Positions 46,448 to 62,300 of a stretch of 64,000 nucleotides of DNA are shown here, piece after piece. The notes beneath the pieces are model-generated. The model was not told the DNA's origin. It did no database searches and worked only from the letters and a program-made list of their open reading frames with translations. The stretch comes from Candidatus Woesebacteria bacterium GW2011_GWF1_31_35. Lineage in GTDB: Bacteria > Patescibacteriota > Microgenomatia > UBA8517. The translations under genes and the position numbers were made by a program. The stretch is from the NCBI GenBank assembly GCA_001029755.1, contig CP011214.1, positions 1,754-65,753 on the forward strand, read 5' to 3'. Every line of letters starts with the position of its first letter. The stretch's first letter is position 1.

Positions 46448-47035
46448 TTAGTTTAAATTGGTGTTAATTTCAACGAGGTTATTAGTTTTTTCTAATAAAT
46501 TTTGAAAATATTCTTTACCATCATCAGTATTTTCCTCAGGTGCCCAACTGGCAAACTCCTTATCAGTTTCTGCTATATATCCACCCTTTGCCTGCCTTTT
46601 TGACTCCAATATTACAAATGGCTCATCAGATATGATAGTATGCCAAATATTTGGTCTTATTGTAACAATGTTTTTTCCCACTTCTGACAACTTAACAACT
46701 TTATTAACTTTTCCATCATCATCAAACATGACAACTGAAGCTTTTCCTTTTAATAGTCTAAAAGATTCTGTTTTTTCAAGCTCATTATGTTTATGGGGTC
46801 TAACATAGTTCTCGGTAGAAATTGCATTAATCATTAAGTGTTGTTCTGCCTTAAGTGAATCATGAATTCTAAAAATAAATCTTCCTCTTTCAGAAACCTT
46901 GGCAATTCCTAATGCTAAATTTGCTAAATCTTTTGAAAGATAATCGCCTTTGTGTGATTTAATATATTTATCTAAATCAACAGCAGAAGGTATTGATCCA
47001 TCAAAATCTTTTTTAATTGAATCCAGAGGTTCCAT
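46448..47035 (-). CDS. WbuC-like cupin-fold protein
   Basis: It is 195 aa with His-rich cupin-like motifs (PHKHNE...). It lies within a nucleotide-sugar operon. Confidence 0.4.
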   Translation of the reverse strand: MEPLDSIKKDFDGSIPSAVDLDKYIKSHKGDYLSKDLANLALGIAKVSERGRFIFRIHDSLKAEQHLMINAISTENYVRPHKHNELEKTESFRLLKGKASVVMFDDDGKVNKVVKLSEVGKNIVTIRPNIWHTIISDEPFVILESKRQAKGGYIAETDKEFASWAPEENTDDGKEYFQNLLEKTNNLVEINTNLN

Positions 47036-47051
47036 TTTTAAATTAAAGAAA

Positions 47052-47930
47052 TTATTTACCAGAACGAATTAAGCCTAATTCCTCACGAGCAAAATTAACT
47101 GATTCAGCAACCATTGCATCAGGAGTTCTAAAAACATCTATCCGAACTGCCATTTTGCCAAAAAGTTTCTCACCTTCCTGTTTTATTTCATCCCCCACTC
47201 TTTCAAATTTTGAAAAACCTACTCCTACCAAACTAGCAACACTTGCCCTATTAAACGATTTTTTATCAAAAACAGGTTTATCTATGGCTATTCCAGCTTC
47301 TTCCATTGCCTCTCTTTTTGCAACATCTTCAGTTGTATCTCCTACAAATTGTGCAAAACCACCAGGTACTGTTAAAAACCACATACCTGTTTTCAATGCT
47401 TTGTATTCTTCAATTTCTTTAGGATCAGTTAGATTATCTGGAATGATTATTTTTGCATCCCAAGCAGCTGGTCTCCATTGCCAAAAACAATGGACATAAT
47501 AGTCATCATTAATTTTTTCAATTGGGGCAACTAAAGATCCTGGAGTTGCAATACCTGTTCTTGTGTCTAACTTTCCATCTTGCCACAAAAGACCATCATT
47601 AAGATAGTTGATAAGATTTCCCTCAGTATCATACTCTACAACGGCGTAGTGTTGTACTGAACCAAAGTTTGGATTTTTTAATCCAGAGTTATCAATATTC
47701 CAACCAATACCCTTTTTCTTTTCATTTTCAGAATTATGATTGTCAATAAAATCATTAATCCAATCCTTTATTAATGTAACTGGTAGTAAAGTTTGCCTTG
47801 GTCTTTCTATTGGCTCGGAAGGAAGAACATCATAATATGAAACCTCCCCAATTTTAAAATTAGGCTCAATAGAAATCGTTTTCCTATTTTCAGAACTATA
47901 TTTTTCAATAGGTAATTTAACTTCTACCAT
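47052..47930 (-). CDS. Nudix hydrolase with a roughly 170 aa N-terminal domain
   Basis: It has a Nudix-box-like segment GGFAQFVGDTTEDVAKREAMEEAGIAI (REx2EExGI). Confidence 0.6.
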   Translation of the reverse strand: MVEVKLPIEKYSSENRKTISIEPNFKIGEVSYYDVLPSEPIERPRQTLLPVTLIKDWINDFIDNHNSENEKKKGIGWNIDNSGLKNPNFGSVQHYAVVEYDTEGNLINYLNDGLLWQDGKLDTRTGIATPGSLVAPIEKINDDYYVHCFWQWRPAAWDAKIIIPDNLTDPKEIEEYKALKTGMWFLTVPGGFAQFVGDTTEDVAKREAMEEAGIAIDKPVFDKKSFNRASVASLVGVGFSKFERVGDEIKQEGEKLFGKMAVRIDVFRTPDAMVAESVNFAREELGLIRSGK

Positions 47931-47986
47931 ATTTGTGTATTTTACTTAAAAAAATGAATCTAGTCAAGACTACAGGGTGTATTTTA

Positions 47987-49903
47987 TTAAAGTTTCAACC
48001 CTTTAATTTCCATGAGATTAAGGCGTGTTAATGCCGAAAGAAAGTATGCATCATCACATTTATTAATTAAATCAGAAAGTTTTTCAATAGGCCAAAGAAC
48101 TATTCCCTCATCTTCTTCAAATTTATCTCCTTTTTTGACATCTGTATAAAGTTCATTTGAAAGATCAACAACAATTGCATATAAATTAGGTTTATTGTTT
48201 GTCATACCGGAATCAGGGTTGAGTCTTCCTAAAGAAATTATTTGATCTAAAACAGCATCATTATTCGCAACACTTAAATTTAAATCTTTTTGTAAAGACC
48301 TAACTATAAAATCCAAAACTGACTCATTTAGGGTTGGAAGTCCTCCTGGAAGAGTGTATTCAATTGCTCCTGTTGGAAATTTTAATTCTCTTTGTGTCGC
48401 CAAATGTGTAATTTCTCCCCTTCTTTTAATCAAAACTAATAGTTTTGCACCTGATTTGGGTCCCCAACCCCAAGAATAGTACCCTTCCATTCTTTTCTCT
48501 TTCTTGGTATTTTCAACTTCAAACCAAGATCCAATACCATATATCCCATATTTTGGATCTCCATGTTCAATTTTTTCTAGGCTTAGGATAGTGTCCCCAT
48601 CTAAATGGTCTTCTCTTCCTGCTAAATCTTCAACATAACCAAAAGTTGAAGGGTTAATTCCTAGAGATTTAATTTCCTTTTTAATTTTCTCTGAACTATT
48701 TTGGTACCATTTTTTACTTTCCAGATTTCTAATAACAATTTCATATCTAATTAGATTTTGTTCAACAAAATGTTTCTCGGTATCAATTTTTCCTACAGAA
48801 CTAGCTACACCCTTGCTATCATCATTTTTTTCAACTTTTCCGAAAACAAATTTAGTTTTACCCGATTCTCTATCAAGAGAGATATAGGCTGAAATAGTCT
48901 TTGAAGAATCCATTATCATTGCTTTCCTTTTAAGAAGAGGTCTCCACCAATCTTGGTTTTCCCTATACCATTTGATTGTTTCTTTTAACCCTTCATTAAA
49001 ATCATCTCTTCCAATTTTTGGCTTCCAACCTAATTCTTCTATAATTTTTGTAGCATCAATTGCGTATCTTCTATCATTACTATGGCGATCAGAAACGTTA
49101 CGAATCATATTTTCATTAGCACCATATAGATTAACTATCTTTTTAGCAATATAACCATTACTTCTGTCATTATTAGATCCCACTAAATATGTTTCTCCCT
49201 TTTTACCTTTTTCTAAAATTAATTCAATTGCAGAGGAATGATCTCTGGTATGAATCCAATCTCTGACATTTCTACCATCTCCATGAAGTGGAACTTTAAT
49301 ATTGTCAATTAGATTACAAATAACTATTGGTGCAAACTTTTCAGGAAATTGAAATGGTCCATAATTATTTGAACAGTTTGAAATTGTAATATACATTTTA
49401 GTTTTTTCATAAAAATCCATAACAATCCTATCTGCTTCAGCTTTTGACAATGCATATAAATTATCAGGTCTTGGAGAATATGGAGTTTTTTCAGTAAATT
49501 TAAGATCTGAATCTAAAGGAAGTTCTCCGTAAACTTCATCAGTTGATATTTGATGGAACCTGGTAACTCCTGCTTTTTCTGCTTCTTCCAGTAAAGTTAA
49601 TGTTCCATGAACATTTGTTTGCCAATAAGTTGAAGGATCAAAAACAGATCTATCAACATGACTTTCAGCAGCAAAATGAACCAAAGTGTCAACCCCCTTT
49701 AAGCTTTCTGAAACTATTTTTCTGTTATTGATATCTCCTTCAATAAACTCAATTTTTTTTGAAATTGGTCGAAGTGTTTCAAAATTTCCAGCATAGGTTA
49801 ACGAATCCAATACTTTAATTTTATCTTTAGGATGTTTTTCTAGCCAATAATAGGTAAAATTTGAACCAATGAATCCTGCACCCCCTGTTATTAAAATATT
49901 CAT
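47987..49903 (-). CDS. rmlB: dTDP-glucose 4,6-dehydratase fused to a roughly 300 aa C-terminal degenerate Nudix-like domain
   Basis: The N-terminal 330 aa are canonical RmlB (MNILITGGAGFIGSNF...YxxxK...). The C-terminal extension contains KLLVLIKRRGEITHLATQRELKFPTGAIEYTLPGGLPTLNESVLDFIVRSLQKDLNL, a Nudix-box pattern with RE changed to RS and EE changed to KD. Confidence 0.75.
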   Translation of the reverse strand: MNILITGGAGFIGSNFTYYWLEKHPKDKIKVLDSLTYAGNFETLRPISKKIEFIEGDINNRKIVSESLKGVDTLVHFAAESHVDRSVFDPSTYWQTNVHGTLTLLEEAEKAGVTRFHQISTDEVYGELPLDSDLKFTEKTPYSPRPDNLYALSKAEADRIVMDFYEKTKMYITISNCSNNYGPFQFPEKFAPIVICNLIDNIKVPLHGDGRNVRDWIHTRDHSSAIELILEKGKKGETYLVGSNNDRSNGYIAKKIVNLYGANENMIRNVSDRHSNDRRYAIDATKIIEELGWKPKIGRDDFNEGLKETIKWYRENQDWWRPLLKRKAMIMDSSKTISAYISLDRESGKTKFVFGKVEKNDDSKGVASSVGKIDTEKHFVEQNLIRYEIVIRNLESKKWYQNSSEKIKKEIKSLGINPSTFGYVEDLAGREDHLDGDTILSLEKIEHGDPKYGIYGIGSWFEVENTKKEKRMEGYYSWGWGPKSGAKLLVLIKRRGEITHLATQRELKFPTGAIEYTLPGGLPTLNESVLDFIVRSLQKDLNLSVANNDAVLDQIISLGRLNPDSGMTNNKPNLYAIVVDLSNELYTDVKKGDKFEEDEGIVLWPIEKLSDLINKCDDAYFLSALTRLNLMEIKGLKL

Positions 49904-50781
49904 TTTAAATCGAGAGTTTTTAGATACTCTCTAAAATCACCATTTAGATCTTTGTGTTTTAGAGCGAACTCAACAACAGTTTTTAGATATTCCAATTTAT
50001 TACCTGTGTCATAGTAAACTCCGTTTTCAATTTCACAAGCATATATTGGAATTCCTTGTTTTCTTAAGACATTAATTGCATCAACTAACCATATTTCTCC
50101 ACCCTTGGAAGGTTTTAGGTCTCTTAATGCTGGAAAAATTTCGGGAGGTAAAATATAGGCTCCATGTGTAGCTAAATTGGAAGGAGCTTCTTCAGGAAGT
50201 GGTTTTTCAATTATTTCTTTAATCTTAAAGACTCTATCCTCAACTGGTTCCAAGTCTGCAATGCCATATCTTGATAGTCTATCTTTAGACTCAATCCTAA
50301 CCCCAGAGATAACAACTCCTCCATATTTTTCATATACTTTCATCATTTGTTGTAGTCTTGGAGGATTAGAACTAATAAATTCATCGCCCCAAAGGACTGC
50401 AAAACTTTCCTTCCCTATAACAGACTCAGCAGATAAAACTGGGGTTCCATTACCATAAAGGCCTTTCTGTCTTACATATATAAAATTAGCCATTTCAGCA
50501 ATTCTTTTAACTTCTTCCAAGAGCTTTTCTTTGCCACCTTGAATAAGATTATTAATTAAATCGGCATTTGGCATATCGAAATGATCTTCAATTGCTCTTT
50601 TTGAAGAACCAGTAACAATTACAATGTCTTTAATTCCACTCTCAACAGCTTCTTCAACAACATATTGAATAACAGGTTTATCTACGATTGGAAGCATTTC
50701 CTTTGGCATAGCTTTAGTTTGGGGTAGAAATCTAGTTCCAAAGCCTGCTGCGGGTATTACTGCCTTTGTTACCTTTTTCAT
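49900..50781 (-). CDS. galU: Sugar-1-phosphate nucleotidyltransferase of the GalU (UTP-glucose-1-phosphate uridylyltransferase) type
   Basis: KAVIPAAGFGTRFLPQTKAMPKEMLPIVDKPVIQYVVEEAVESGIKDIVIVTG matches the GalU signature rather than short-form RmlA. Confidence 0.7.
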   Translation of the reverse strand: MKKVTKAVIPAAGFGTRFLPQTKAMPKEMLPIVDKPVIQYVVEEAVESGIKDIVIVTGSSKRAIEDHFDMPNADLINNLIQGGKEKLLEEVKRIAEMANFIYVRQKGLYGNGTPVLSAESVIGKESFAVLWGDEFISSNPPRLQQMMKVYEKYGGVVISGVRIESKDRLSRYGIADLEPVEDRVFKIKEIIEKPLPEEAPSNLATHGAYILPPEIFPALRDLKPSKGGEIWLVDAINVLRKQGIPIYACEIENGVYYDTGNKLEYLKTVVEFALKHKDLNGDFREYLKTLDLK

Positions 50782-50827
50782 AAGCTTAGCTTGTCTTTCA
50801 TATAGGGTACTTGTGATTATACAGAAC

Positions 50828-51088
50828 CTAACCTCTTAAAATCAATGATAGGATCATAACAAGACCTAAAATTGCAACAGCTACGTATTCTAAAATTACG
50901 GAAAGGTATATATCTTTATGAATTACATGATGAATTATTCCCCAAGAAACATATGATCCGGCTAATGCAATAGCTACTCCAATTTGAAAACTTTTATCAT
51001 ATGAGAATAAATAAAATCCTAAAACTCCTGCAAAAAATATTGCAAATAAAGAAATATAGTGAGGTATATGTTTTTTAAATGATTTCAT
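50828..51088 (-). CDS. Small membrane protein (86 aa, 2-3 TM)
   Basis: It is a hydrophobic ORF in an operonic position. Confidence 0.35.
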   Translation of the reverse strand: MKSFKKHIPHYISLFAIFFAGVLGFYLFSYDKSFQIGVAIALAGSYVSWGIIHHVIHKDIYLSVILEYVAVAILGLVMILSLILRG

Positions 51089-51120
51089 ATTAATTTTTAA
51101 AAAATTTTATTTATAAATGT

Positions 51121-52080
51121 TTATAATATTTTACCTGCTTTTAAGATTAAAATAATTGCCATAATCATACCTAAAAATGATACATGAGCAAAACTTCTGC
51201 CTGCAATTCTAGCAATACCTTTTTTTGATACAAAAAAACTATCAACCAAAAATACCACCACCAAAAGTCCCACAACACTTAAAGATATTGCCCTAGTTGT
51301 TGCAAATGGAGATATTATAAATTGTTGTATTTTTGATGTAGTAAAAATAGCCTCAACAGTAGAAACAGGTGAAGCTATTGCAATAATCGGAATTGGAGAA
51401 CTAGTTGGAGAAATAGTCGCAGCAATAGTAGGCTTTATTGTTGGTTTAATAGTTGGATTATCATTTATAGGATTGTTGGCAGCTACAGGCTGGGCAATAT
51501 TATCAACATAGGTTGATCCAAAAAATTGAACTATTATAGTTGTATCAACTCCAGCTAAATCTCCTTCAACTACCCCAATCCCAATTTCTTTGTATTTTGA
51601 ATTTAAAATATTTTCCCTATGAGTTGGGGAATTCATCCAAGCATCAACTGCAGAAGAAGCACTACTAAAGTCTCTTGCTAAATTTTCACCAGCGTATCTA
51701 TATCTATAACCAGCACTTGTAAAAAAACTCCAAGGCTGTGTTCCATCTGGAGCTATATGTGCCCAATAATCCTTTATAATCATATCATTTCCCTTAGATT
51801 GGGCAGCTACAGAAAGTGTTCCATTTAATGTTAATGAAGGTAAGCCTGCTTGGGCTCTTTTTTCGTTTGTAAGCCTTATAATTTCATCAGGTGAGATCTG
51901 GGAGGCATATCCTAAGATAGATGGACCCAATTTAGGTATAAAATTTAAAACAGCTTGGAAAAGAATAAAAAATGAGGCTAAAACTAATAAACCACTTGGA
52001 TGTAAAATTTTAGCCTTGTGGTTATTACTTGCTCGAGGCAAAAATAAATGAAGTGTTTTTTCTATAAAATCCATACACAT
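51121..52080 (-). CDS. CAP/SCP/PR-1 domain protein with Pro/Thr-rich linker (PTIKPTIKPTI) and C-terminal TM anchor
   Basis: It carries ...AAQSKGNDMIIKDYWAHIAPDGTQPWSFFTSAGYRYRYAGENLARDFSS...WMNSPTHRENIL. Confidence 0.65.
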   Translation of the reverse strand: MCMDFIEKTLHLFLPRASNNHKAKILHPSGLLVLASFFILFQAVLNFIPKLGPSILGYASQISPDEIIRLTNEKRAQAGLPSLTLNGTLSVAAQSKGNDMIIKDYWAHIAPDGTQPWSFFTSAGYRYRYAGENLARDFSSASSAVDAWMNSPTHRENILNSKYKEIGIGVVEGDLAGVDTTIIVQFFGSTYVDNIAQPVAANNPINDNPTIKPTIKPTIAATISPTSSPIPIIAIASPVSTVEAIFTTSKIQQFIISPFATTRAISLSVVGLLVVVFLVDSFFVSKKGIARIAGRSFAHVSFLGMIMAIILILKAGKIL

Positions 52081-52129
52081 TCATCATATCTTTTCGATTA
52101 GGAGAATTCAATCATTCTTCAATGAAAGT

Positions 52130-53509
52130 TTAGTTATTTTCAAACAAAATTGTTGGAGATGGTTCAGGACTTGGAGACGGACTTAGTGTCGGTGTTGGAA
52201 AAACTTCTGGAATAGGCGTAGGTGATGGACTTGAACTTGATTCAGATTCTACAGTTTGTGTAGAAAAAGAAGAAATTAAATCTTCTTCTGAAAGATTTGT
52301 ATATCCTGGTGTTCCATAATTATTTCCTTCAATATCCCAATATTTAGTACTATTGCAAGCAATATTTGTACAGGTATGCCATCCAGATGATAGATCACTA
52401 TTTCTTTCCATAGACTGTTCGACAGTTGCCGGCGAAGTATGTGTACCAGCAACCCATGACCCCATAGGGGTTTGGTCAATAATATTACCTGAAGCATCCT
52501 TAAGTATTAATTGCTCCCCAGGACTTTTAGTCAAATGTAGACTACTATCAATTTGATCTACTACCAATGAATGACTCAACGCAGATTTATCATCTATTGA
52601 TGCATAATGACTTAGAAGAAAATAACCATTAGCTTCAATCTTTCCATTTAAAATTATTTCGTTAGGGCCAGGACCTGCACCATAAAGTTTCCAGCCCGTT
52701 ATATCAATAACTTCATTAGTAGTATTTCTTAGTTCTATCCATTTATCTAATTCATGTACAGTTGAACCCATCCACATTATTTCATTAATAACAACACTCC
52801 CTATAACATCAGGTGTTGACCAATTACTAGTCGCTGAAAAAGTACTACCCCCAATTACAGCCACATCAGAAAAATAAGCATTTATAGGTTTGATTTGAAA
52901 AAGACCGAATCCTAATAAAAAGTAAATAAGTAACAAATCAATGGGTTTGTTTTTATGCAATTTTTCAGATTCTTCATATTTTTTTTCTACTTCTTTTTCA
53001 ATTGTCTTTTTAATATTTAATAATTCACTAATAATAATGAGAAGGGCAGGTAAAACCACCAAAAGACCAAAACCTAAAGGTTTTTTTATCCAAACAGATA
53101 AATAACCTAAAAAGGGTAAGGAAAAAATAACTTTACCTTTTATTTGAAATGAAGAAATTTCAGCAATATCTTCAATACTATTAGCATCCCCTTTTGTTTT
53201 AAAGACAGTCTCACCATTCTTCTTTTCAACTGCTACCAATCGGTGAGTAATTGATACGTTTGGATCTTCTGCTGAAATATATGTAATAATCTCTCCTTTT
53301 TTTAAAATTTCAGGATCAACTTTTTGAGTAAAAACTACTGAACCTACTTTGATTGCAGGTTCCATCGAACCGGACATGACTCTTAAAACTTGAAAGCTCT
53401 TAATTGGGTTAAAAGCAGTAAAAACCAACAATAAAACTATCGAAATCAAAACAACAGTTAATAACCATTGAAAAATATTAATTATTTTTTTTAATATATT
53501 TTTAAGCAT
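52130..53509 (-). CDS. sipW: SipW-type (archaeal/eukaryotic-type S26) signal peptidase I fused to a C-terminal lamin-tail domain (LTD) and Pro/Ser-rich tail
   Basis: The N-terminus has a TM helix then ...LRVMSGSMEPAIKVGSVVF...ITHRLVAV...GDAN (SipW/Sec11-like Ser/His). The C-terminus has VVINEIMWMGSTVHELDKWIELRNTTNEVIDITGWKLYG (LTD pattern), then SPSPTPIPEVFPTPTLSPSPSPEPSP. Confidence 0.7.
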   Translation of the reverse strand: MLKNILKKIINIFQWLLTVVLISIVLLLVFTAFNPIKSFQVLRVMSGSMEPAIKVGSVVFTQKVDPEILKKGEIITYISAEDPNVSITHRLVAVEKKNGETVFKTKGDANSIEDIAEISSFQIKGKVIFSLPFLGYLSVWIKKPLGFGLLVVLPALLIIISELLNIKKTIEKEVEKKYEESEKLHKNKPIDLLLIYFLLGFGLFQIKPINAYFSDVAVIGGSTFSATSNWSTPDVIGSVVINEIMWMGSTVHELDKWIELRNTTNEVIDITGWKLYGAGPGPNEIILNGKIEANGYFLLSHYASIDDKSALSHSLVVDQIDSSLHLTKSPGEQLILKDASGNIIDQTPMGSWVAGTHTSPATVEQSMERNSDLSSGWHTCTNIACNSTKYWDIEGNNYGTPGYTNLSEEDLISSFSTQTVESESSSSPSPTPIPEVFPTPTLSPSPSPEPSPTILFENN

Positions 53510-53526
53510 ATTTAAAACCTTTTATA

Positions 53527-53569
53527 AGTTACCCAAATCAGACCTATATTCTAGGCCCTTTCTGGGTAA
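53527..53569 (-). promoter_or_regulatory. Compound inverted repeat (GTTACCCA ... TGGGTAAC enclosing CCTA-tattc-TAGG) between the TasA-like gene and sipW; possible attenuator/partial terminator
   Basis: It was seen in the sequence. On the transcribed strand it is followed by an A/T-rich stretch, but there is no clean U-run. Confidence 0.25.
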
Positions 53570-53591
53570 CCTAAAAAACCTCAAACATAGT

Positions 53592-54227
53592 TTAAGGTGT
53601 TTGTACAAGGCCAAATACCGCATTCATGGTAACACTATCTCCTTGTATACTATTCCCTGCAGTAGTAGGAATTGACCACTCAATTTTAACACTGGCTGTT
53701 GTATTCATTTCCCCAACACTTTCACCAATCATTGGACCAAGTGTATAAGGACCATTGAATTGATCAACAGTACCATTTAAACCAGTATCTACAAAAAAAC
53801 CATTATGATCACCATCATAATAAACACGGAAATTTAAAACTCCAGCAAGATCACTCCAACCAGAAGTTCTATTTAAATCAATTGTTGCATTGCCATTAAT
53901 AGTACCATCATTCGCAATGTCTATTATTTGTACTCTAGTATCACCTGGTTTTAAATTATTTAGACCTGCCTGAGCCATAAAGTTATCATAACCTATCCCA
54001 ATTGTTGTATCCAAATAAGTTCTATAATCAGTACTAGAAATATCAAATCCATCAACCCAATTATAAGTGGCTGATCTTGGATCTTGATCTATCTTAAGAT
54101 CCATAGTTCCAGAAGAGAAAGTGGTTCCAAGAATTGACGCTGTATCACTAAAATAAGCAACTGTAGCAGTTGTTACTCCAGCGATAACCAAAGCAATCAT
54201 TGTTAGACTTAATAATATTTTTTTCAT
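53592..54227 (-). CDS. Secreted TasA/camelysin-like protein with SipW-cognate-class signal peptide
   Basis: The N-terminus MKKILLSLTMIALVIAGVTTATVAYFSDTASILGTTFSSGTMDLKI matches the SipW-cognate signal pattern (..GATGAYFSDTE...NTF.AGTLDL). A strong SD (AAGGAGGTGA) lies upstream. It is adjacent to sipW. Confidence 0.65.
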   Translation of the reverse strand: MKKILLSLTMIALVIAGVTTATVAYFSDTASILGTTFSSGTMDLKIDQDPRSATYNWVDGFDISSTDYRTYLDTTIGIGYDNFMAQAGLNNLKPGDTRVQIIDIANDGTINGNATIDLNRTSGWSDLAGVLNFRVYYDGDHNGFFVDTGLNGTVDQFNGPYTLGPMIGESVGEMNTTASVKIEWSIPTTAGNSIQGDSVTMNAVFGLVQTP

Positions 54228-54440
54228 GTTTTTTAATTATTCACCTCCTTTCATATATCCAAAAGAAATATGGAGAATTTTTAAAAAAAGAGTAATATCC
54301 TGAAGAAAAACAGGCTTTTCATCAACTGACAATGTATTTAACATACCAGTCATGAAACAAAGCCTTTTGGGGACAGTCAAAAAGTTAATTACAATATACA
54401 CTAACCATTAGAATAGTTGTCAAGTAGTATCCGTGTTATG

Positions 54441-54965
54441 TTATTGTAATCTATATGAAATAAATTGTCTGGGTTCACCAAACATTTGAACAATTACAGT
54501 ACGTGTCTGACCATTTACTACTCCAGTTGCTAAAGCTATTCCAGTTTCTTTGTAACGATTAGAAAGAAGGTTTTGTTTATGAGTAGGTGATGCTAACCAC
54601 GCACCTATTAAAGATCCAGTATCACCATAATCTCTCCCTAAATTTTCTCCAGCTAATCTACCTCTATATCCTGTTGCTAATATAAATTTCCAAGGAGTAG
54701 CCCCAGTTGTTGGATTATTATGAGCCCAATAACCATAGGAAATTAAATCTTGTGCTTTTCGTTGTGCAGCTAAAGTTAATAAATTATTTTTCTTTAAAGC
54801 TAATTGTCCATTTTGGATACGTGTCTGATTTACTTCATTATAAACATTTTCAACAGAAAGACCTGAAGCCTTTACTAAATTGGGTATAGCTAAAAATACA
54901 AATGCAAAAATAAAAATAGCACTTGAGATAATTATGCTTTTAAAAAAGTTATTCTTGTTCATCAA
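54441..54965 (-). CDS. CAP/SCP/PR-1 domain secreted protein
   Basis: It carries ...AAQRKAQDLISYGYWAHNNPTTGATPWKFILATGYRGRLAGENLGRDYGD...WLASPTHKQNLL. It has an N-terminal signal/TM. Confidence 0.65.
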   Translation of the reverse strand: MMNKNNFFKSIIISSAIFIFAFVFLAIPNLVKASGLSVENVYNEVNQTRIQNGQLALKKNNLLTLAAQRKAQDLISYGYWAHNNPTTGATPWKFILATGYRGRLAGENLGRDYGDTGSLIGAWLASPTHKQNLLSNRYKETGIALATGVVNGQTRTVIVQMFGEPRQFISYRLQ

Positions 54966-54970
54966 TGTAA

Positions 54971-55036
54971 GTGTGAAGATTAGTGAAGTAGCTTGCGTGA
55001 TGAGATAACTGACAAAAATATGTCAAAAAATGCAAA
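54971..55036. repeat. Copy 1 of a roughly 65-bp direct repeat carrying GTGAAGAT...TTGCGTGAT...AACTGACAAAAATATGTCAAAAAATG (TGACA-N6-TGTCA palindrome)
   Basis: It aligns by eye at roughly 75% identity with copy 2 (about 55189..55263). It lies in the 5' region of the CAP gene 54441..54965. Confidence 0.4.
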
Positions 55037-55062
55037 GTTTATTACTATCTATTTGTCCTTTT

Positions 55063-55158
55063 TTACTCTCCCAACATGTTTGGCTTAGATGGAATAATTG
55101 CCAAAGCAGCAAATACACCTAAAATATAGCCAACTGTAACCAATGCAAAATAAATCAT
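55063..55158 (-). CDS. Possible 31 aa single-TM micro-protein (MIYFALVTVGYILGVFAALAIIPSKPNMLGE)
   Basis: It is an ORF between the two repeat copies. It is hydrophobic, has no convincing SD, and is below the track size cutoff. Confidence 0.2.
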   Translation of the reverse strand: MIYFALVTVGYILGVFAALAIIPSKPNMLGE

Positions 55159-55188
55159 AATAATTATATTTTTTCTAACTTACTACTA

Positions 55189-55263
55189 TTGTGAAGATAA
55201 TTAAAATAGGTTGCGTGATAAACAAACTGACAAAAAATAGTCAAAATTGACAAAAAATGATAC
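55189..55263. repeat. Copy 2 of the roughly 65-bp direct repeat (…TTGCGTGATAAACAAACTGACAAAAAATAGTCAAAATTGACAAAAAATG), containing a TTGACA -35-like hexamer; immediately upstream of the plus-strand regulator gene
   Basis: See copy 1. Confidence 0.4.
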
Positions 55264-55276
55264 CATATGCTCCTAA

Positions 55277-56476
55277 ATGTCAAAACTTGAAAAATTAGTA
55301 GTCACCAAACAATATCTTGATGCCGAAAATAAGTGGGGACAAATACTTAATAATGGAGAAAGTCTTTCAATCCTATTTCCCCCTGTTTCAGATTGCCAAC
55401 GTAGAATTAGCCAATTTATTAGTGAACACAACAATGAATTTCTATTCTCAGAAGTAAACCCCCTTGATCTAGCTACTGAAGAATTAATTGACCTTGAAGC
55501 AAGTTTACTGATTCAAGCTAGGTTATTGTCTGAATTTAAAAAATTCCAAAGTTTTGAATCTTTAATTCATCATTTAGATAAAAACAAACGGCATTTAATA
55601 ATAACCTGTCCACTAGCTGATTTTTTGTTTACTCAAAAAGGCAAACAATATCTATCTTTAATTCAAAAAATTATTTTTCAATATACACCAACTCTTACTT
55701 GTTTTTTAGCATTTGAGACTGACATTATTCACCCTGATAATGCTGAATTGGTACGTAATTACCACATGCTTTTTCAACATATTGGTTATTACCCACTTTA
55801 CTCATCTACTGATACATCCACCTTTATTAATTATCTATGTCTAAAATGGGAAATTAAAATAAAAACAAAGGTTAAACAAGAAATTATTGAAAAATGTGGT
55901 GGATATTTTTGGTTAGTAAAAGAGGCTTTAAGACAAATTCGTGATAATGGTTCTTGGGAGATAAACTCAGAATCTTTCCAATATCGTTTGCAAACAATCG
56001 CCCAATCTTTAAAAGAGAGTGAATATATAACTATCGCCAAAATCTTAAGTAAAAGCCGTGGATTTGATGATGTTCAATTACACAGCAGAAAATATCTACA
56101 AAAGATAGGATTATTAGATAATAAATTCAATTTAACTGTCCCACTTTTAAAAGATACAATAATTAAGCTTGGAGCAAGTAAAAGAAAACTTATACTTATC
56201 AAAAATGAAATCTTTTTAAACCAAGTGCCTGTTAGTAATTTCTTTTCTCGAAAGGAATTCCGCATTATTAAATTACTTTTATCTCGCGAAGGAGAAACTG
56301 TCACTCGTGACGAAATTGCAGATGTAATTTGGTTAATGGATGTTAAGGAAAAATATTCAGAATGGGCAATTGATCAATTAGTTAAAAGATTACGAAATCG
56401 TTTGTCAGAACTTTTAATACCAAAAACAGTATTACGTTCTGTTCGTGGAAAAGGATATTGCTATGTTCAATCATGA
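55277..56476 (+). CDS. Transcriptional regulator with C-terminal OmpR/PhoB-type winged-helix DNA-binding domain and a roughly 300 aa N-terminal domain of unknown (possibly degenerate P-loop-like) fold
   Basis: The C-terminus FSRKEFRIIKLLLSREGETVTRDEIADVIW...AIDQLVKRLRNRL...VRGKGYCY is a trans_reg_C signature. The N-terminal region has no receiver-domain residues and no Walker A motif. Confidence 0.6.
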   Translation: MSKLEKLVVTKQYLDAENKWGQILNNGESLSILFPPVSDCQRRISQFISEHNNEFLFSEVNPLDLATEELIDLEASLLIQARLLSEFKKFQSFESLIHHLDKNKRHLIITCPLADFLFTQKGKQYLSLIQKIIFQYTPTLTCFLAFETDIIHPDNAELVRNYHMLFQHIGYYPLYSSTDTSTFINYLCLKWEIKIKTKVKQEIIEKCGGYFWLVKEALRQIRDNGSWEINSESFQYRLQTIAQSLKESEYITIAKILSKSRGFDDVQLHSRKYLQKIGLLDNKFNLTVPLLKDTIIKLGASKRKLILIKNEIFLNQVPVSNFFSRKEFRIIKLLLSREGETVTRDEIADVIWLMDVKEKYSEWAIDQLVKRLRNRLSELLIPKTVLRSVRGKGYCYVQS

Positions 56477-58457
56477 AATAGAAATAAATATTGACCAAAA
56501 TAAAGAATCGCAAAATGATAGGGGTAATCTTTTTTCTTTATTAAAAAGAAATATATTAATAAATACAATTAAAGAAAACCCTGGCAGTTGTAATTTACCA
56601 GAAGTCGTCGAAAACATATTAAAAGAAACTCTAATTTTTCCCCAAACTGAAAAGGTAGAATTAACAGGAAGTTTGGCCAGATTTGCGATTGGATTTGGTT
56701 CAATGGAAAGACACAATCAAGGAAAAGATGGTGCGAGTAAATTACTAAGAGAGGTTAATATTTCAACAAATAAAAATAATTTTGAAAACAATCCATGGAA
56801 AAACATTATTACTGATCTTTCTGAAAGTGATTTGGATATGGATACTTGTTTTTATTTTAGACCAGGTTATTCATTATTGGATTTATATAATTCATTGGAA
56901 GAAAAACACAAAGATTCTAACAATTTAAAGGTAGAAAAAACAGATATTATTAGCACTTTTTCATTTAATCTAATGGATAACTTTCAACTAGCCATTACTC
57001 ATGAACCAATTATCACTAACCCTGGACTTAATAAATTAACTATTGATATATCTTACAAACCAGTAAATGAAGATTATAAACAAATCATGCATATTGATGT
57101 TAGTGAATCCCCGATAGATGCAGAAAAAGCAAGAAGACAAAAAAGACATGGTGGCAGAACTACAAAATCGCAAGATAGAGGTCGTCTAACATTAAAAATA
57201 GAAAATAAAAAAATAATTTATGAGGTAACAAATGAAGCTAAAATGGCACTTAAGGGGAGAGAGAGAATTAGTACTTCTGGAAAAAATATGAAAGATATTT
57301 TTGAATTATCACTGCGTTCCTTGCGAATAAGATTAATTCATACACCTGATGATCTTTCTATTAAAATAAATCATCTTTTCCCACTTTTCGATTCTAAAAG
57401 TTTATTTTCAATTAGAAAAAATGTTCAAGAATATGTATCAACAAATAATAACAAGTTGACTACAAAAGAAATGTCTCTTCCTTTAAAAGACTTAATTTTA
57501 TGTTTTAACTACGATCCATATATCACATTACATTTCTTGCAAGATAGTAATTTTTATTTATTATTTCCAGGACTAAATAATATTACTTCCAAGGGTTGGC
57601 GTAATTTATATTTGAGCGATTGGTTAAATCTAACAACCGTTGATGGTAATTTTTTAGAACCTGACAAAAGATCGTTAAATAGTTTAGTTAAAGATCAAGA
57701 TGAATATAGTAAGAGAAATTTATCCAATGGATTCATTTCAATACTACACGCAATTAGTGAATTAAAATATCCTAAAAAAGAATTTGATTTAATGAATTCT
57801 TTTAATTACTTTGATACATCAAAGATAGTTGAATTTAATCAAGAAAGAATAAAATCAAATAAACCTACTAAAGCTATTTCTTACCTTTTAAATTTCTTTA
57901 ATGGTGGTCTAACTGAAATAGAAATTCAAAGACTTTATAATTTATATTCAGATAAAAAAATTGAGACTGAAGAATTTAGAAAAGTATTGCGTGAACTTAA
58001 ATTGGAATCAAAAATAGATAAACAATTACGTACAGTAAACATCCAAGGAAGAAAAAGATCAGTAATCTTATATGGTTTAAGAACTGTAAAATCACAAAAC
58101 CCGTTACAATTAGATAATTTAATAGATAAAACTAGTGAAGTTACAAAGCATCCATGTTTAGATCGTGCTAATGAATACTTGATTAAAAACTTTAAAAATT
58201 TAGAATTTAATGATAAAACCATAACTTTAAAAAGTATTCATAACTTTCTAAAAAGTAATGGAGTATTAACCTTAGAAGCGCTTAGATCATTTTCTTACAA
58301 AGATTTTTCAGATTTTTATAATAAATATAATAACGAAGAAAAAAATAAATTAAATCAAGGAAACTTTCAGATTTATTGCAGAGGCCTTCAAATTATTTCT
58401 GAAGATGTTTTAAGATATCCACTATTTTCAAATTATTTACGTTTAGATAAAAAATAG
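56445..58457 (+). CDS. Large hypothetical protein (670 aa), translationally coupled to the upstream regulator
   Basis: It overlaps the regulator by 32 bp. It is soluble and K/N-rich. GS...SDLDMD segments are at best a weak nucleotidyltransferase-like hint. No family was recognised. Confidence 0.45.
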   Translation: MEKDIAMFNHEIEINIDQNKESQNDRGNLFSLLKRNILINTIKENPGSCNLPEVVENILKETLIFPQTEKVELTGSLARFAIGFGSMERHNQGKDGASKLLREVNISTNKNNFENNPWKNIITDLSESDLDMDTCFYFRPGYSLLDLYNSLEEKHKDSNNLKVEKTDIISTFSFNLMDNFQLAITHEPIITNPGLNKLTIDISYKPVNEDYKQIMHIDVSESPIDAEKARRQKRHGGRTTKSQDRGRLTLKIENKKIIYEVTNEAKMALKGRERISTSGKNMKDIFELSLRSLRIRLIHTPDDLSIKINHLFPLFDSKSLFSIRKNVQEYVSTNNNKLTTKEMSLPLKDLILCFNYDPYITLHFLQDSNFYLLFPGLNNITSKGWRNLYLSDWLNLTTVDGNFLEPDKRSLNSLVKDQDEYSKRNLSNGFISILHAISELKYPKKEFDLMNSFNYFDTSKIVEFNQERIKSNKPTKAISYLLNFFNGGLTEIEIQRLYNLYSDKKIETEEFRKVLRELKLESKIDKQLRTVNIQGRKRSVILYGLRTVKSQNPLQLDNLIDKTSEVTKHPCLDRANEYLIKNFKNLEFNDKTITLKSIHNFLKSNGVLTLEALRSFSYKDFSDFYNKYNNEEKNKLNQGNFQIYCRGLQIISEDVLRYPLFSNYLRLDKK

Positions 58458-59347
58458 AAATAAAGAACTGGGAGAACAATTATTAGAGTAATAATTCCAA
58501 GTGTTATTTTAGTTCTATCCTTCGCAAATTTAACTACCTTTCCAATAATTCCATTGGGAGTTTCTGTTGCAGATGGATTATTAATAGTTTCAAGATTTGC
58601 TTCCTCACCCAACACCTGTCCAGTACCTTCTTTAGGAAGTACTGTAACCTTACCAGATCCATTTTGAGATGGAACAGGTGTTATAACTGTAACAGTTGTA
58701 CTTCCATCCCCTACTAAACTTGATGAATTATCTGCTTTATCTAAAGCTCTTAATGCATAAAAGTAAGTTTTGTTAAAATCTGGTGTATGTTCATCATAGG
58801 TCATATCAGAATTTGAAGATCCTGATATTCTAGCAATTTCATGTTGGTTATCTGCTGAAAAGTCTACAGTCTCTCCTCTATAAATAACTACTTTTGAAAA
58901 ATCAGTGTCATTAGGATTTATCCAATGAATTTTAAAATCATCACTATCAATTGTATCTTTATAATAACCAGTTACAGGTGATGGTCCTGAAATATCATAG
59001 AAAGAACTTGTTTCATCTGTAGCACCAGAAATTTCTACTTTAAAATAGTATTTTGTTTGATCACTAACTTGTGAACTTGTAACTTCAACTTGGCCAGAAG
59101 CTCCATTTATAATTGGACCTAATGTTACATAACTTCCACCCTCTTTTCTGTAATAAAACTGAGCTGAAATACTTGTTGGATCACTAGTTACTGCAGAATA
59201 TGAAAGTTTAAAATTATTTGTATTAAAGTAACTTGGAAGTTTACTTATTGAAACCTCAGGTGTTATTTCTGCAACAGCTGGTCTAACCAAAAGTCCTAGA
59301 CCTAATAATAAAGAGATTAAAAATGTTATAACTTTACTTTTTTGCAT
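58433..59347 (-). CDS. Secreted, C-terminally membrane-anchored protein with two Fn3-like beta-sandwich domains
   Basis: It has the signal peptide MQKSKVITFLISLLLGLGLLVRPAVA, Fn3-like segments (...FKIHWINPNDTDFSKVVIYRGETVDF...), and a C-terminal TM helix plus KRK. Confidence 0.5.
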   Translation of the reverse strand: MQKSKVITFLISLLLGLGLLVRPAVAEITPEVSISKLPSYFNTNNFKLSYSAVTSDPTSISAQFYYRKEGGSYVTLGPIINGASGQVEVTSSQVSDQTKYYFKVEISGATDETSSFYDISGPSPVTGYYKDTIDSDDFKIHWINPNDTDFSKVVIYRGETVDFSADNQHEIARISGSSNSDMTYDEHTPDFNKTYFYALRALDKADNSSSLVGDGSTTVTVITPVPSQNGSGKVTVLPKEGTGQVLGEEANLETINNPSATETPNGIIGKVVKFAKDRTKITLGIITLIIVLPVLYFYFLSKRK

Positions 59348-62300
59348 ATTTTCTATTTATATAAATCCCTATACCCAACATTGTAAGTGCCATTATAATC
59401 CATAGAGTATCACTTCCTGTATCGGGTAATTCTATAGAAGCTCCTAAAACTTGTCCCAATAGATTTCCACCATAACCTATTCCTGTTCCTATAACTACAC
59501 TTGAATTAGCTACATTACATTCAATAGTTTCTAAACTTTCTTCTCTTTCTTCTGACCCAATTGTTCCTTTACAAGTTGCAAAGTTTTTATATGATGATCC
59601 TTGAAATACACTTGATAACACTTTTGCTTTGTAGGTAATTTTAATTTCCTGACCACTTATTATGTCTCCAATACTCCATTTCAAAACGCCTGAGGTTATT
59701 GTCGGATCTGAGGTTGACACATCATTTATTAAGCTAGATCCTGAAACATATTCAAAACCACCAGGTAAAATATCAATTACTTCCAAGTTATTAATTGTTA
59801 CATTACCAGTATTTTTAACTTTTAAAGTATAAATTACTTCATCGCCAATTCTTGCTCCAAATAATTTATCATTACTTTTTTCAATCTTAACCTCTTTTGA
59901 TGGTACAAATCCAAAATCTGCTGCATCAAAGTTTGCCCCAGAGACAACTGCAATTGGACCATATGGATCGGTTGTAGTTGGTGCATATCCTGTAGGTACT
60001 GTTAAATCAACAACATCAACCCAATAATTACCTGGTAAAAGATTGGTAAATAGATATATACCTGATCCATCCGTTGTAGTTGATCCTACTAATATATCAG
60101 CCTCACCTAAATCTTGAATTCCATCACCATTATCTAAATAAAGATCAGTCTGAACTCCAGAAATTCCAGGTTCTCCAACATCTTGAATTCCATTACCATT
60201 ATAATCAGTCCAAACAAAGTCTCCAATTTCTGCAAGTTTGAAATTACCAAAATTTTGCACTACATTGTTATTATTTTGAGGTACATTAACAAAGTGACAA
60301 TTAGGATCTGTTGGATATGTTTGTGTCCAACCTGTCTTTAATTCCTCACAAACTTTATATGTAGCTGGGAATAGATGATTAAACCAATACCATCCTAAAT
60401 CAGAGCCAATAGTTGTGTCAGTTGTGGTTGTTTTTACTAACTTTGTATAATCGTTTGTCCCATTATCCCAACCATATAAATTAATAGCCCAATTACCAAG
60501 TGGATTGTCATCAATATTTTCAATTCCATTTCCATCTTTATCTTCCCATTTATATCCGTGAATTGAACCATTTGGAGTATTTATAAATGTACAAATTATA
60601 GTTTCACCTTCTCCTAGAATTATTCCATTTACACTATCTAAATTATCATATGTACCTTTAAAAGTTTCTCCTAATTTACAATAAGCGGTAACTAAATCGT
60701 ATCCATCTTGTTTAGATTCAATTGCCAAATATTCTCCAGTTTTAATATCATCAGTTATATTTTCTCCATTCAAATCAGTTGTAAGTGGAGATGGATCTTC
60801 TGTGTCAGTACTGTTTCCATTTATATCAATAACCCAACCAACACCCGGTGTTTGATCTGAAGTAGTAGTAATATAACCATCTTCATCAATAATTTTCTTT
60901 ACTTCAATTTTTCCTAAATCTCTCGTATTTGTAACTGTACAAGTTTTATTTTCTCCCAAAGCTATGGATCCATCGCAATCATCTGAGAATGATGATGTAT
61001 ATCCTGTGACAACATCCTCGGAAACAATATAACTTCCTACATCCAAAGAAGCTGTTGTTCCAGCTGAAGATCCTGGGAAAGAATCCTCACTTACATTGTC
61101 TCCATCTATATACATTGTAAAGTCGCCAGATACTTTTGCACTACTTCCTACAACATTTTTGACAACTGTTAAATGTGGAGTTTTGTCATCATTATGAATT
61201 GTACAAGTAACATTTTCTCCTTCATCTAGTGTTAAACTTCCACCTAATACACTAGGACACTTACTATCACCTGTAATATTTACAAAATTATATCCTTCCA
61301 AAACTGTCTCATTTAGAGAGATTGAAGTATTAGCATCAACTGTAGTTGTGGATCCTGAAAGTACCAAATTTCCTCCAACCATTAAACTAAAATCATCTGG
61401 ATTTGCGTCCCCACCATTGTCATTTGTTACATCTTTAATAAGTGTAATTGTTGGGGCTATATCATTATTAGTTATCGTGCATGTTGCAGTTCCACCATTT
61501 GGAATAACTACATCAGTACAGTTATTATATCCGGTTGAATATCCTGAAACTGATGGCTCAACTACTGAATATGTTCCGGCATTAACATTTAAATCATTCT
61601 GACCGTCAGATTCAAATGCAACAGCTGTTCCACCATTTACTTTAAATGTAAAATTACCATATGTTTCATTTCCACCATTATCTTTTACGAGAACTTTTTT
61701 AACAATTAAGGTAGCTGATTGATCATCATTTGTAATAGTACAAGTTACATTACTATTAGCAGAAAGGGTTAAATTATCATTTACTAAATTTCCACCAGTA
61801 CATGACCAAGAACTTGCAGAATATCCAACTGGACCTGATTCTGAAAGAGAATATTGTTTATTTGCTAAAATTTTACCAGTAATTGAAGGTCCATTTCCTT
61901 GAACTTTTAATGAGTTAGAATCATATATTGCAGAGAGTTCCCAATCAGAAGGTTCTTTGGTTCCACCACTATTATTGTTTACAACTTTTTCTAAAGTTAA
62001 AGTTGCTGTGTCAATTGCATTACAAAGAGTAATGTTAGTATCAACATCTTTATTTACTGTGACTGTTACGGGAAGCGTAATTCCTTCAGGAGTATTACAA
62101 GAATATCCTGTACTCCCTGTAGTAAACCATCCAACAAAATGATAATCAGAAACATCATCATTCTCGGTAACAGTGTGGGTTACTCCAGTTATAGTAGTTT
62201 CAATGCCACTTACAGTAGAGCCCATGCTATACGCTTGACTTGTGTCAACTTTAAAAGAAAAACCTAAAGTATTAGCTTGACTATTACCACCTTCAAATGT

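Follow-up and report, generated by a model that had tools for sequence, protein, structure and literature searches.

A candidate TasA-type fibre cassette of Patescibacteria in which a SipW-type signal peptidase is fused to a probable lamin-tail minor subunit

Introduction

Patescibacteria (the candidate phyla radiation, CPR) are abundant and mostly uncultured, and many of them are attached to other cells. Their surface structures are discussed mainly as type IV pili. Here we describe a locus that may build a TasA-type fibre. It lies in a 64-kb stretch of DNA from Candidatus Woesebacteria bacterium GW2011_GWF1_31_35 (64,000 nucleotides, G+C ~29%; hereafter the window), where a gene for a secreted TasA-like protein of 211 amino acids (aa) is followed by a gene for a 459-aa protein, SipW-LTD, that joins a SipW-type signal peptidase to a lamin-tail domain (LTD). 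A reading made from the sequence alone (the sequence-only reading) had pointed to this pair as a candidate fibre or adhesin module. The question that the locus raises is what the two proteins make together and why a signal peptidase should carry an LTD. The answer that we consider probable, given the homologies, the structure models and the comparison of related loci, is a TasA-superfamily fibre system assembled through donor strands, in which the 459-aa protein would be a peptidase fused to a cleavable, TapA-like minor subunit.

Results

The locus is transcribed from the minus strand in the order CAP2, TasA-like gene, SipW-LTD, CAP1, the gene of a membrane protein of 86 aa and a cluster of rhamnose-type nucleotide-sugar genes, with intergenic gaps of 213, 82, 49, 32 and 46 nucleotides (Table 1). 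The peptidase gene thus starts 82 nucleotides downstream of the TasA-like gene on the same strand, and this adjacency is kept in nearly all related loci. The four open reading frames (ORFs), the AYFSD motif, the LTD, the Pro/Ser/Thr-rich tail and the two CAP paralogues of the sequence-only reading were all recovered on the minus strand at the same positions. The fused locus is identical in three independent records or assemblies, including the entire 459-aa protein, which excludes an assembly error as the source of the fused ORF. With 18 fused loci and about 60 fused database proteins in addition, an origin by misassembly or frameshift was ruled out.

The N-terminal domain of SipW-LTD is recognized by the signal peptidase I model TIGR02228 over residues 10-162 (113.8 bits against a cutoff of 51.85, E=6.8e-33), and all of 62 fused homologues match the same model. 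The domain also aligns with human SEC11C/A, both in sequence (E=3.6e-11) and in fold (E=3.8e-6). Ser48 in the motif SGSMEP, His89 in THR, and Asp108 and Asp114 in GDANxxxD are invariant or near-invariant in alignments of 26 and 62 homologues, and they align with their catalytic counterparts in SEC11C. The Ser/His dyad is therefore intact, and neither of the outcomes that would have refuted the sequence-only reading, a signal-peptide HMM without a match or a peptidase lacking this dyad, was observed. Hydropathy analysis places two transmembrane (TM) helices at residues 15-33 (TM1) and 145-163 (TM2), where the AlphaFold2 (AF2) model has helices spanning residues 2-33 and 144-181. Judged from its sequence, the peptidase is of the endoplasmic reticulum/archaeal (SipW/Sec11) type, with Ser/His(/Asp) in place of the bacterial Ser-Lys dyad. 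By the score of the Bacillus SipW equivalog model NF046067 (105.9 bits against a cutoff of 190), it is of SipW type but no orthologue of Bacillus SipW itself. Databases label SipW-LTD proteins merely “signal peptidase I”.

The neighboring 211-aa precursor is predicted to yield an acidic mature protein of ~187 aa with an isoelectric point (pI) of 4.05. It exceeds the gathering score of PF12389 (Peptidase_M73, camelysin/TasA) with 31.4 bits against 22.5, in an alignment limited to residues 2-48, and it reaches 19.6 against a cutoff of 450 for the TasA equivalog NF046066, which implies that it is not a TasA orthologue. A family profile of 194 positions, built from 45 homologues, matches AbpX (9sj2) with E=5.7e-10, better than TasA (5of1/8aur, E ~2e-6). 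These alignments span positions 31-193, essentially the entire mature domain, and the motifs TFxxGTLDL, NLKPGD and N.YQG.S..Q are common to the TasA-like family, AbpX and TasA. The AF2 monomer is compact, with a mean predicted local distance difference test score (pLDDT) of 89. When this model is compared with the PDB by Foldseek, the TasA fibre 8aur comes first (E=2.8e-6, probability 1.00). The further matches, to the Pyrobaculum bundling pilin AbpA, chaperone-usher pilins, a Sulfolobus thread and cannulae, are all donor-strand-complemented filaments. By profile and modelled fold the 211-aa protein is a member of the TasA/AbpX fibre superfamily, and the earlier proposal of a SipW-type peptidase beside a cognate TasA-like secreted protein, a credible fibre subunit, holds on family models, catalytic residues, profile and fold.

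The signal peptide of the major subunit has its hydrophobic segment at residues 4-22 by hydropathy, and its T-V-A site aligns with the TasA site T-W-A↓AFND (arrow, cleavage). Mature TasA begins at residue 28 (PMC10151520). Thr occupies position -3 in 59 of 70 major subunits compared across related loci, and Ala occupies position -1 in 66 of them; their consensus reads T(-3)-x-A(-1)↓[YF]-F-S-D-T-E-T-S-x-G-N-T-F-x-A-G. No other part of the TasA-like family is as well conserved as this N-terminal strand motif. The segment is homologous to TasA residues 28-47, a region that supplies the donor strand in the TasA fibre, the strand itself being residues 28-38, directly after the SipW cleavage site (PMC9674648). 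It also agrees with the rule for AbpX donor strands, by which position 2 is aromatic and position 4 acidic (bioRxiv 10.64898/2026.01.04.697558). The monomer model shows this segment unpacked and at low confidence. From these likenesses we infer that the major subunit polymerises by donor-strand exchange.

The ORF of the peptidase holds a second cleavage-site and donor-strand motif, INA↓YFSDVAVIGGSTFSA, directly before the LTD, which the sequence-only reading had overlooked. Behind TM2, a Lys/Glu-rich linker (KKTIEKEVEKKYEESEKLHKNKP) is followed by a hydrophobic stretch (DLLLIYFLLGFGLFQ) of ~14-15 residues, then by I-N-A↓YFSDVAVIGGSTFSATSNW, and at once by the LTD. Genuine AYFSD instances in all six frames of the window number two, one in the TasA-like protein and one inside the peptidase ORF. 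The N-terminal hidden Markov model (HMM) of the TasA-like family scores 16.4 bits on the internal segment, a value reached by none of 2000 shuffled sequences, the best of which scored 4.7. The shuffle control and the mere two instances in the window together argue that the motif is no chance match. After the predicted cuts, 10 of 16 residues are identical between INA↓YFSDVAVIGGSTFSAT of the LTD subunit and TVA↓YFSDTASILGTTFSSG of the major subunit. Position by position, residue usage is nearly alike at the cleavage sites of the 70 major subunits, the 37 split LTD proteins and the 18 fused proteins; at the internal site of the last group, 16 have Ala at -1, 17 have one of Thr, Ser, Ala and Val at -3, and 15 have Phe at +2. 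TIGR04088, the model of the SipW-cognate signal, matches 15 of the 62 fused homologues (best 1.2e-5). In the AF2 model of the 459-aa protein, residues 1-181 and 237-410 are confident and a helix is placed at 190-204, whereas residues 210-236, which comprise the cleavage site and the strand, form a disordered region (pLDDT <50) between the two confident domains. The predicted template modelling score of 0.47 means that the arrangement of the domains is undefined.

The LTD is recognized by PF00932 at residues 236-347 (48.9 bits against 34.3, E=1e-12), as the sequence-only reading had anticipated, and its fold matches the lamin A/C immunoglobulin (Ig) fold 1ifr (E=6.2e-5) as well as 3gef and 3umn. 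The core VVINE..W.EL.N is invariant among homologues, and the tail behind the domain differs among them in length and sequence. Bacterial LTDs have been proposed to target proteins to membranes or membrane-associated structures (PMC6085458, citing Mans 2004). Some fused SipW-LTD proteins are as long as 900-1170 aa (loci L009, 8001-10724; L032, 7911-11426; L044, 5721-8678). Between their donor-strand motif and LTD lie 400-650 additional residues, and a variable insert in this place is as expected of a surface-exposed tip or adhesin region.

The architecture of the 459-aa protein becomes intelligible when related loci are compared. A scan of genome contigs, with one genome per species, gave 80 loci, and their ORFs were then searched with HMMs of the TasA-like family, the SipW domain and the LTD region. 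A cassette recurs among them that consists of one to four tasA-like genes, sipW, a gene for an LTD protein and usually a gene for a protein of 330-470 aa with a weak TasA-like region. Its hosts belong to the Woese-, Roizman-, Levy-, Davies-, Curtiss-, Chisholm-, Moran-, Dojka- and Parcubacteria groups, and it was also found in several probably mislabelled metagenome-assembled genomes. Out of 58 non-redundant SipW domains, 40 are encoded by stand-alone genes (160-246 aa) and 18 are fused to the LTD protein. Behind most of the stand-alone sipW genes comes an LTD gene of its own (37 of these split LTD genes in all), and of 12 split junctions inspected, 8 show an ATGA overlap between the two genes. 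At their N-terminus, the split LTD proteins have an ordinary signal peptide and then T-x-A↓[YFL]-F-S-D...G-N-T-F-S-A, the very motif that is internal in the fused proteins. The split and fused gene states and the shared signal motif thus identify the 459-aa protein, at the level of sequence, as the product of sipW joined to the substrate gene downstream of it, with the signal peptide of the substrate kept internally. The internal signal and strand also explain the architecture that had appeared unusual, and SipW-LTD is no one-off, as there are at least about 60 full-length fused homologues and the 18 fused loci come from many Patescibacteria lineages. Both states are widespread, and the tree of the SipW domains supports no more than that.

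The N-terminal strand of the LTD protein is closer to the major-subunit strand encoded beside it in the genome (mean identity 0.49) than to those of other genomes (0.36; 50 loci, 0 of 20000 permutations reaching the observed value). This likeness within genomes points to a shared constraint, which may be the subsites of the same peptidase, the same acceptor groove, or both.

Two loci stand out. In L058 (CAYSEI010000004.1, 929-10618), three sipW genes and several tasA-like genes stand in tandem, followed by a CAP1-like gene and one for a small membrane protein; this looks like a local amplification of the cassette. L062 (DATKWX010000096.1, 5282-9813), labelled Candidatus Bathyarchaeia, has a split cassette with genes for the TasA-like protein, SipW, an LTD protein of 889 aa and a protein with a TasA-like region. 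It could be due to a cross-domain transfer or to a binning error.

Discussion

The homologies, catalytic residues, internal motif, split and fused states and synteny described above suggest one course of cleavage, polymerisation and nucleation or anchoring. After export of the 211-aa precursor, the SipW/Sec11-type peptidase would cleave it behind T-V-A. The cut would expose the strand YFSD...GTTFSSG, which could then insert into the beta-sandwich of the next subunit, giving an acidic extracellular fibre. In the 459-aa protein, the N-terminus would be cytoplasmic, with TM1, the catalytic domain outside, TM2, the Lys/Glu linker in the cytoplasm and the former signal peptide leading outward again. 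Such a fusion is topologically workable because the SipW C-terminus and the n-region of a signal peptide are both cytoplasmic. Acting in cis or from a neighboring molecule, the peptidase would cut after I-N-A211 and free an acidic subunit of 27 kDa, made up of the donor strand, the LTD and the Pro/Ser/Thr tail. The peptidase would retain the signal peptide as a third membrane helix. Since the freed subunit has a donor strand and no TasA-type acceptor domain, it would be TapA/AbpB-like and fill the groove of the first major subunit. It might thereby nucleate or cap the fibre, and the LTD and tail might hold that end at the envelope or display it as a tip. Probably, then, the minor subunit with the LTD plays a part like that of TapA, whether by nucleating the fibre, by capping it or by anchoring it. 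The fusion would secure 1:1 production and co-location of peptidase and nucleator.

The boldest form of this proposal is that the 459-aa protein is a self-processing signal peptidase polyprotein, which cuts off its own attached substrate and keeps the signal peptide as its third helix. We put this forward tentatively, as a possibility that falls somewhat short of an expectation. If it is true, the fibre nucleator is born at the enzyme that matures the fibre subunits, and in a 1:1 ratio with it. Its main competitor, which we regard as rather unlikely, is that the fusion stays uncleaved and that the internal segment is a permanent third TM helix tethering the strand and the LTD to the peptidase. 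The whole could then serve as a membrane anchor or assembly platform at the fibre base, or the LTD could be an accessory domain, comparable to DUF5305 next to signal peptidase I (SPase I) or to the non-catalytic subunits of the eukaryotic signal peptidase complex. DUF5305 is indeed sometimes fused to SPase I (bioRxiv 10.64898/2026.01.04.697558), a membrane-directing role has been proposed for bacterial LTDs, the AF2 model has a helix at residues 190-204, and the recurrence of the fused state in several clades may mean that it confers something that cleavage would undo. Against this stand the small residues kept at -3 and -1 of the internal site, where -1 is Ala in all but two of the 18 fused proteins, as no selection is expected at a site that is never cut. 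The hydrophobic stretch also has the length of a signal-peptide h-region and lies under the 19-residue threshold for a TM helix, and the same LTD protein is an ordinary secreted precursor in the 37 split loci. The conservation of the cleavage site in fused proteins thus favours release of the LTD subunit.

Two further explanations were weighed. SipW-LTD might be the general housekeeping signal peptidase of a reduced genome, and its adjacency to the TasA-like gene an inherited gene order without a dedicated link. The small size of Patescibacteria genomes would suit this, and the window encodes no further S26-family peptidase. Yet the order tasA-like, sipW, LTD is kept across very divergent Patescibacteria and the Bathyarchaeia-labelled contig, the substrates share the specialized motif recognized by TIGR04088, and a separate LepB-type peptidase (GASMxPT, GDNRxxSxDSR) is encoded a few kb away in L032, L047 and L087. 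The nearby LepB-type enzyme in these genomes argues that the SipW-type enzyme is dedicated, and we hold a housekeeping role to be very improbable. Least probable of all is that the 211-aa protein is a monomeric secreted protein, such as a camelysin-like protease, an antimicrobial or a coat protein. The name of the Pfam family (camelysin metallo-endopeptidase), the first description of TasA as an antimicrobial spore-associated protein (PMC9674648) and the compactness of the AF2 monomer fit such a protein. The mature protein, however, has a single His, no Cys and no HExxH motif, its closest solved relatives TasA, AbpX and AbpA all form donor-strand filaments, and conservation in the family is highest in the N-terminal strand. 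For lack of HExxH, the reading as a camelysin metalloprotease was rejected.

Several observations weigh against a donor-strand fibre with a cleavable minor subunit and have to be set beside the evidence for it. The polymerisation of the fibre and the fit of the LTD strand to the groove are predictions from sequence and monomer models, and the internal hydrophobic segment of the fused protein could be a permanent anchor. The PF12389 alignment covers just the N-terminal part of the TasA-like protein. The SipW-cognate signal that the sequence-only reading had seen in this protein is borne out in the family, as TIGR04088 matches 40 of 45 members (E<=0.01; best 4.3e-11), but the window protein itself scores 17.4 bits (E=0.0035), 1.6 below the cutoff of 19. 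On the isolated internal segment of the window peptidase, TIGR04088 gave no match. In a neighbor-joining tree the fused proteins form approximately three clades (Fitch minimum of three changes), a count that is not robust given the short domain. The window also lacks the fourth cassette gene carried by most related loci, and CAP1 follows SipW-LTD directly. This fourth gene encodes a 330-470-aa protein with its weak TasA-like region at about residues 45-175 (e.g. L005, 7449-8585, with an fn3 domain; L013, 3230-4471; L026, 9988-11232). Finally, no TapA structure is among the 50 best fold matches of the LTD, and family-model scans gave no TapA family match.

Because the LTD has no homology to TapA, the analogy between the two rests on the N-terminal strand and the gene position. 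The N-terminus of TapA mimics the TasA donor strand and nucleates fibres (PMC9674648, PMC10151520), and the N-terminal segment of the LTD protein is likewise a mimic of the major donor strand behind a SipW-type cleavage site. The tapA and sipW genes of Bacillus subtilis overlap at their stop and start codons and both products are of low abundance, which Roske et al. took as a hint of association (PMC10151520). The cassette thus shares with the tapA-sipW-tasA operon a dedicated signal peptidase of the ER/archaeal type beside a TasA-superfamily subunit, a homologous signal/donor-strand motif (T-x-A↓aromatic-F-x-D...TFxxGTLDL), a second, low-copy substrate with a TasA-like N-terminal strand on a different beta-sandwich, and a coupling of the minor-subunit gene to sipW, by overlap in Bacillus and by ATGA overlap or fusion here. 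It differs in that the major subunit comes first and the minor subunit after sipW, in that the minor subunit carries an LTD, is no TapA homologue and is fused in frame to the peptidase, and in that the host belongs to the CPR and its peptidase stays below the SipW equivalog cutoff.

The loci of AbpX, Tafi and AbpA also combine SPase I with minor and tip subunits (bioRxiv 10.64898/2026.01.04.697558; PMC9245690), and the proposed low-copy LTD subunit may be a functional counterpart of the archaeal AbpB (PMC9245690). Here, too, the mature subunit is acidic with a pI of ~4, the closest profile match is AbpX, and SPase I is found together with a minor or tip component bearing a donor strand; fusions of SPase I to an accessory protein are known there (DUF5305). 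In contrast, our cassette has no DUF5305, the peptidase is joined to a substrate that brings a cleavage site of its own and not to an accessory subunit, and the ten TM helices of the AbpX SPase I are replaced by the two-TM SipW/Sec11 layout with a retained signal peptide. Chaperone-usher pili resemble the proposed fibre in their N-terminal donor strand and in specialized end subunits with incomplete donor or acceptor capacity, and Fim, Pap and CS20 pilins appear after TasA and AbpA in the fold search with the TasA-like protein. The likeness is one of fold and mechanism only and not of family (Foldseek 1e-3 to 1e-2); a chaperone, an usher and an outer membrane are all absent here. The SipA/LepA protein of Streptococcus pyogenes, required for pilus polymerisation, has the S26 fold and lies in a surface-fibre locus as well (fold match 4n31, E=8e-4). 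SipA is catalytically inactive and belongs to sortase-linked pili, whereas SipW-LTD, a member of the Sec11/SipW branch, retains its full set of catalytic residues.

TasA homologues in Patescibacteria have already been noted from Pfam distribution (PMC9245690), and TasA-superfamily loci with SPase I, minor or tip subunits and a fusion of SPase to the accessory DUF5305 have been described (bioRxiv 10.64898/2026.01.04.697558). In the literature searched we found no paper that links SipW to lamin-tail domains or to CPR, and no description of a signal peptidase physically joined to its own substrate. What appears to be new here is a CPR cassette of TasA, SipW and TapA-like components whose LTD-bearing minor subunit is coupled or fused to the peptidase.

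The cassette of major subunit, Sec11/SipW-type peptidase and LTD minor subunit is conserved across many CPR lineages and is a concrete, testable candidate for a CPR matrix or attachment fibre; a role of this locus in host attachment is plausible. If the 459-aa protein does process itself, it would define an assembly platform for surface fibres that is conserved in Patescibacteria, has so far gone undescribed and is a candidate means of attaching them to hosts or surfaces. The split and fused states form a natural experiment that ties a signal peptidase physically to a substrate of its own. Coupling by ATGA and fusion extend the theme of the tapA/sipW overlap, and comparative genomics alone supports the idea that TapA-like nucleators act in close association with SipW. 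The cassette proteins are small and soluble enough for direct biochemistry.

Neighboring genes and other features

Table 1 Features of the fibre locus and its neighbors in the window
Feature	Position	Strand	Basis
Fused SipW-LTD gene, 459 aa	52130..53509	-	TIGR02228, PF00932, three identical assemblies
Predicted SipW/Sec11-type signal peptidase I domain, residues 1-181	52967..53509	-	TIGR02228, conservation, SEC11C/A alignment, hydropathy
Lys/Glu-rich, predicted cytoplasmic linker and signal-peptide-like region DLLLIYFLLGFGLFQ, residues 164-211, predicted cut after Ala211	52877..53020	-	Conservation, split-locus homology
Donor-strand-like segment of LTD subunit, YFSDVAVIGGSTFSATSNWSTP, residues 212-233	52811..52876	-	N-terminal HMM, identity to major strand
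Lamin-tail domain, Ig-like beta-sandwich with Cys-containing insert (WHTC..CN..YWD..GTP), residues 236-405	52295..52804	-	PF00932, AF2, Foldseek
Disordered Pro/Ser/Thr-rich tail, residues 406-459	52133..52294	-	57% Pro+Ser+Thr; pLDDT <50
Gene of candidate major TasA-superfamily fibre subunit	53592..54227	-	PF12389, family profile, AF2/Foldseek
SipW-type signal peptide of major subunit, residues 1-24, ends T-V-A, predicted cut after Ala24	54156..54227	-	Hydropathy, family conservation
Predicted N-terminal donor strand of major subunit, YFSDTASILGTTFSSGTMDL	54093..54155	-	Conserved motif, TasA homology
Terminator-like hairpin and T-run directly after tasA-like stop	53578..53598	-	Consensus scan only: 9-bp stem then TTTTTT
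CAP1, membrane-anchored CAP/SCP protein, 319 aa, Pro/Thr linker, C-terminal TM pair	51121..52080	-	PF00188, hydropathy
86-aa protein, two TM helices, always with CAP1	50828..51088	-	Homologues directly after CAP1 orthologue
CAP2, secreted/anchored CAP/SCP paralogue upstream of cassette, 174 aa	54441..54965	-	PF00188

The hairpin behind the tasA-like gene is a possible attenuator, which could let the major subunit be expressed more strongly than the peptidase and the minor subunit. A promoter scan of 50700-55400 gave 23 sites against 24.4 expected from shuffled sequences, and so no excess.

The sequence-only reading had the two CAP proteins bracket the pair. Their positions and paralogy stand (CAP1 and CAP2 are 44% identical over 132 aa), and their membership in the module does not. 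Both exceed the PF00188 threshold of 21.1, CAP1 with 73.2 bits (E=4e-20) and CAP2 with 41.4 bits (E=3e-10), and with 113 and 77 bits both stay below the 171 of the YkwD subfamily model TIGR02909. A CAP1 orthologue with a homologue of the 86-aa protein, usually also with a nucleoside triphosphate (NTP) transferase, lies downstream of the cassette in seven related loci only (L005, L009, L020, L034, L058, L061 and L063). CAP1 was therefore rejected as a core component; the CAP1 unit is a conserved neighbor in one sub-lineage, peripheral to the cassette. CAP2 was rejected as well, as related loci have no consistent upstream CAP gene.

Two genes divergent from the fibre locus were considered as cassette regulators and ruled out, since neither has homologues in any related locus. 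One (55277-56476, plus strand) encodes a winged helix-turn-helix protein of 399 aa with a C-terminal OmpR-type winged-helix domain only and no receiver domain. The other (56445-58457, plus strand) is a 670-aa ORF without a family match that overlaps it.

Further upstream, a giant surface protein with SpaA-like, SdrD_B and CLIPPER Ig-like domains is encoded at 59334-63962 on the minus strand, in a gene that may run past the window end: the window ORF has 1542 aa, compared to 2047 aa annotated in GCA_001793555.1. It is a candidate for a second adhesin in the same surface island. The end of this gene is overlapped by one (58433-59347, minus strand) for a protein of 304 aa with an N-terminal signal peptide, a C-terminal TM helix and no family match. 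Homology to this protein was found inside a 1376-aa ORF ~1.4 kb upstream of the tasA-like gene of L032 (E=3e-22).

The nucleotide-sugar genes directly downstream of the cassette (46448-50781, minus strand) have counterparts in the same place in several distant relatives (L006, L009, L015, L058, L061 and L063). They encode a GalU/RmlA-like NTP-transferase, an RmlB-like dehydratase of 638 aa with an extension of ~300 aa, and RmlC- and RmlD-like proteins. The C-terminal half of the 638-aa protein showed no significant similarity to the adjacent 292-aa protein (E=0.089). The block might provide sugars for glycosylating the Pro/Ser/Thr tails or the fibre.

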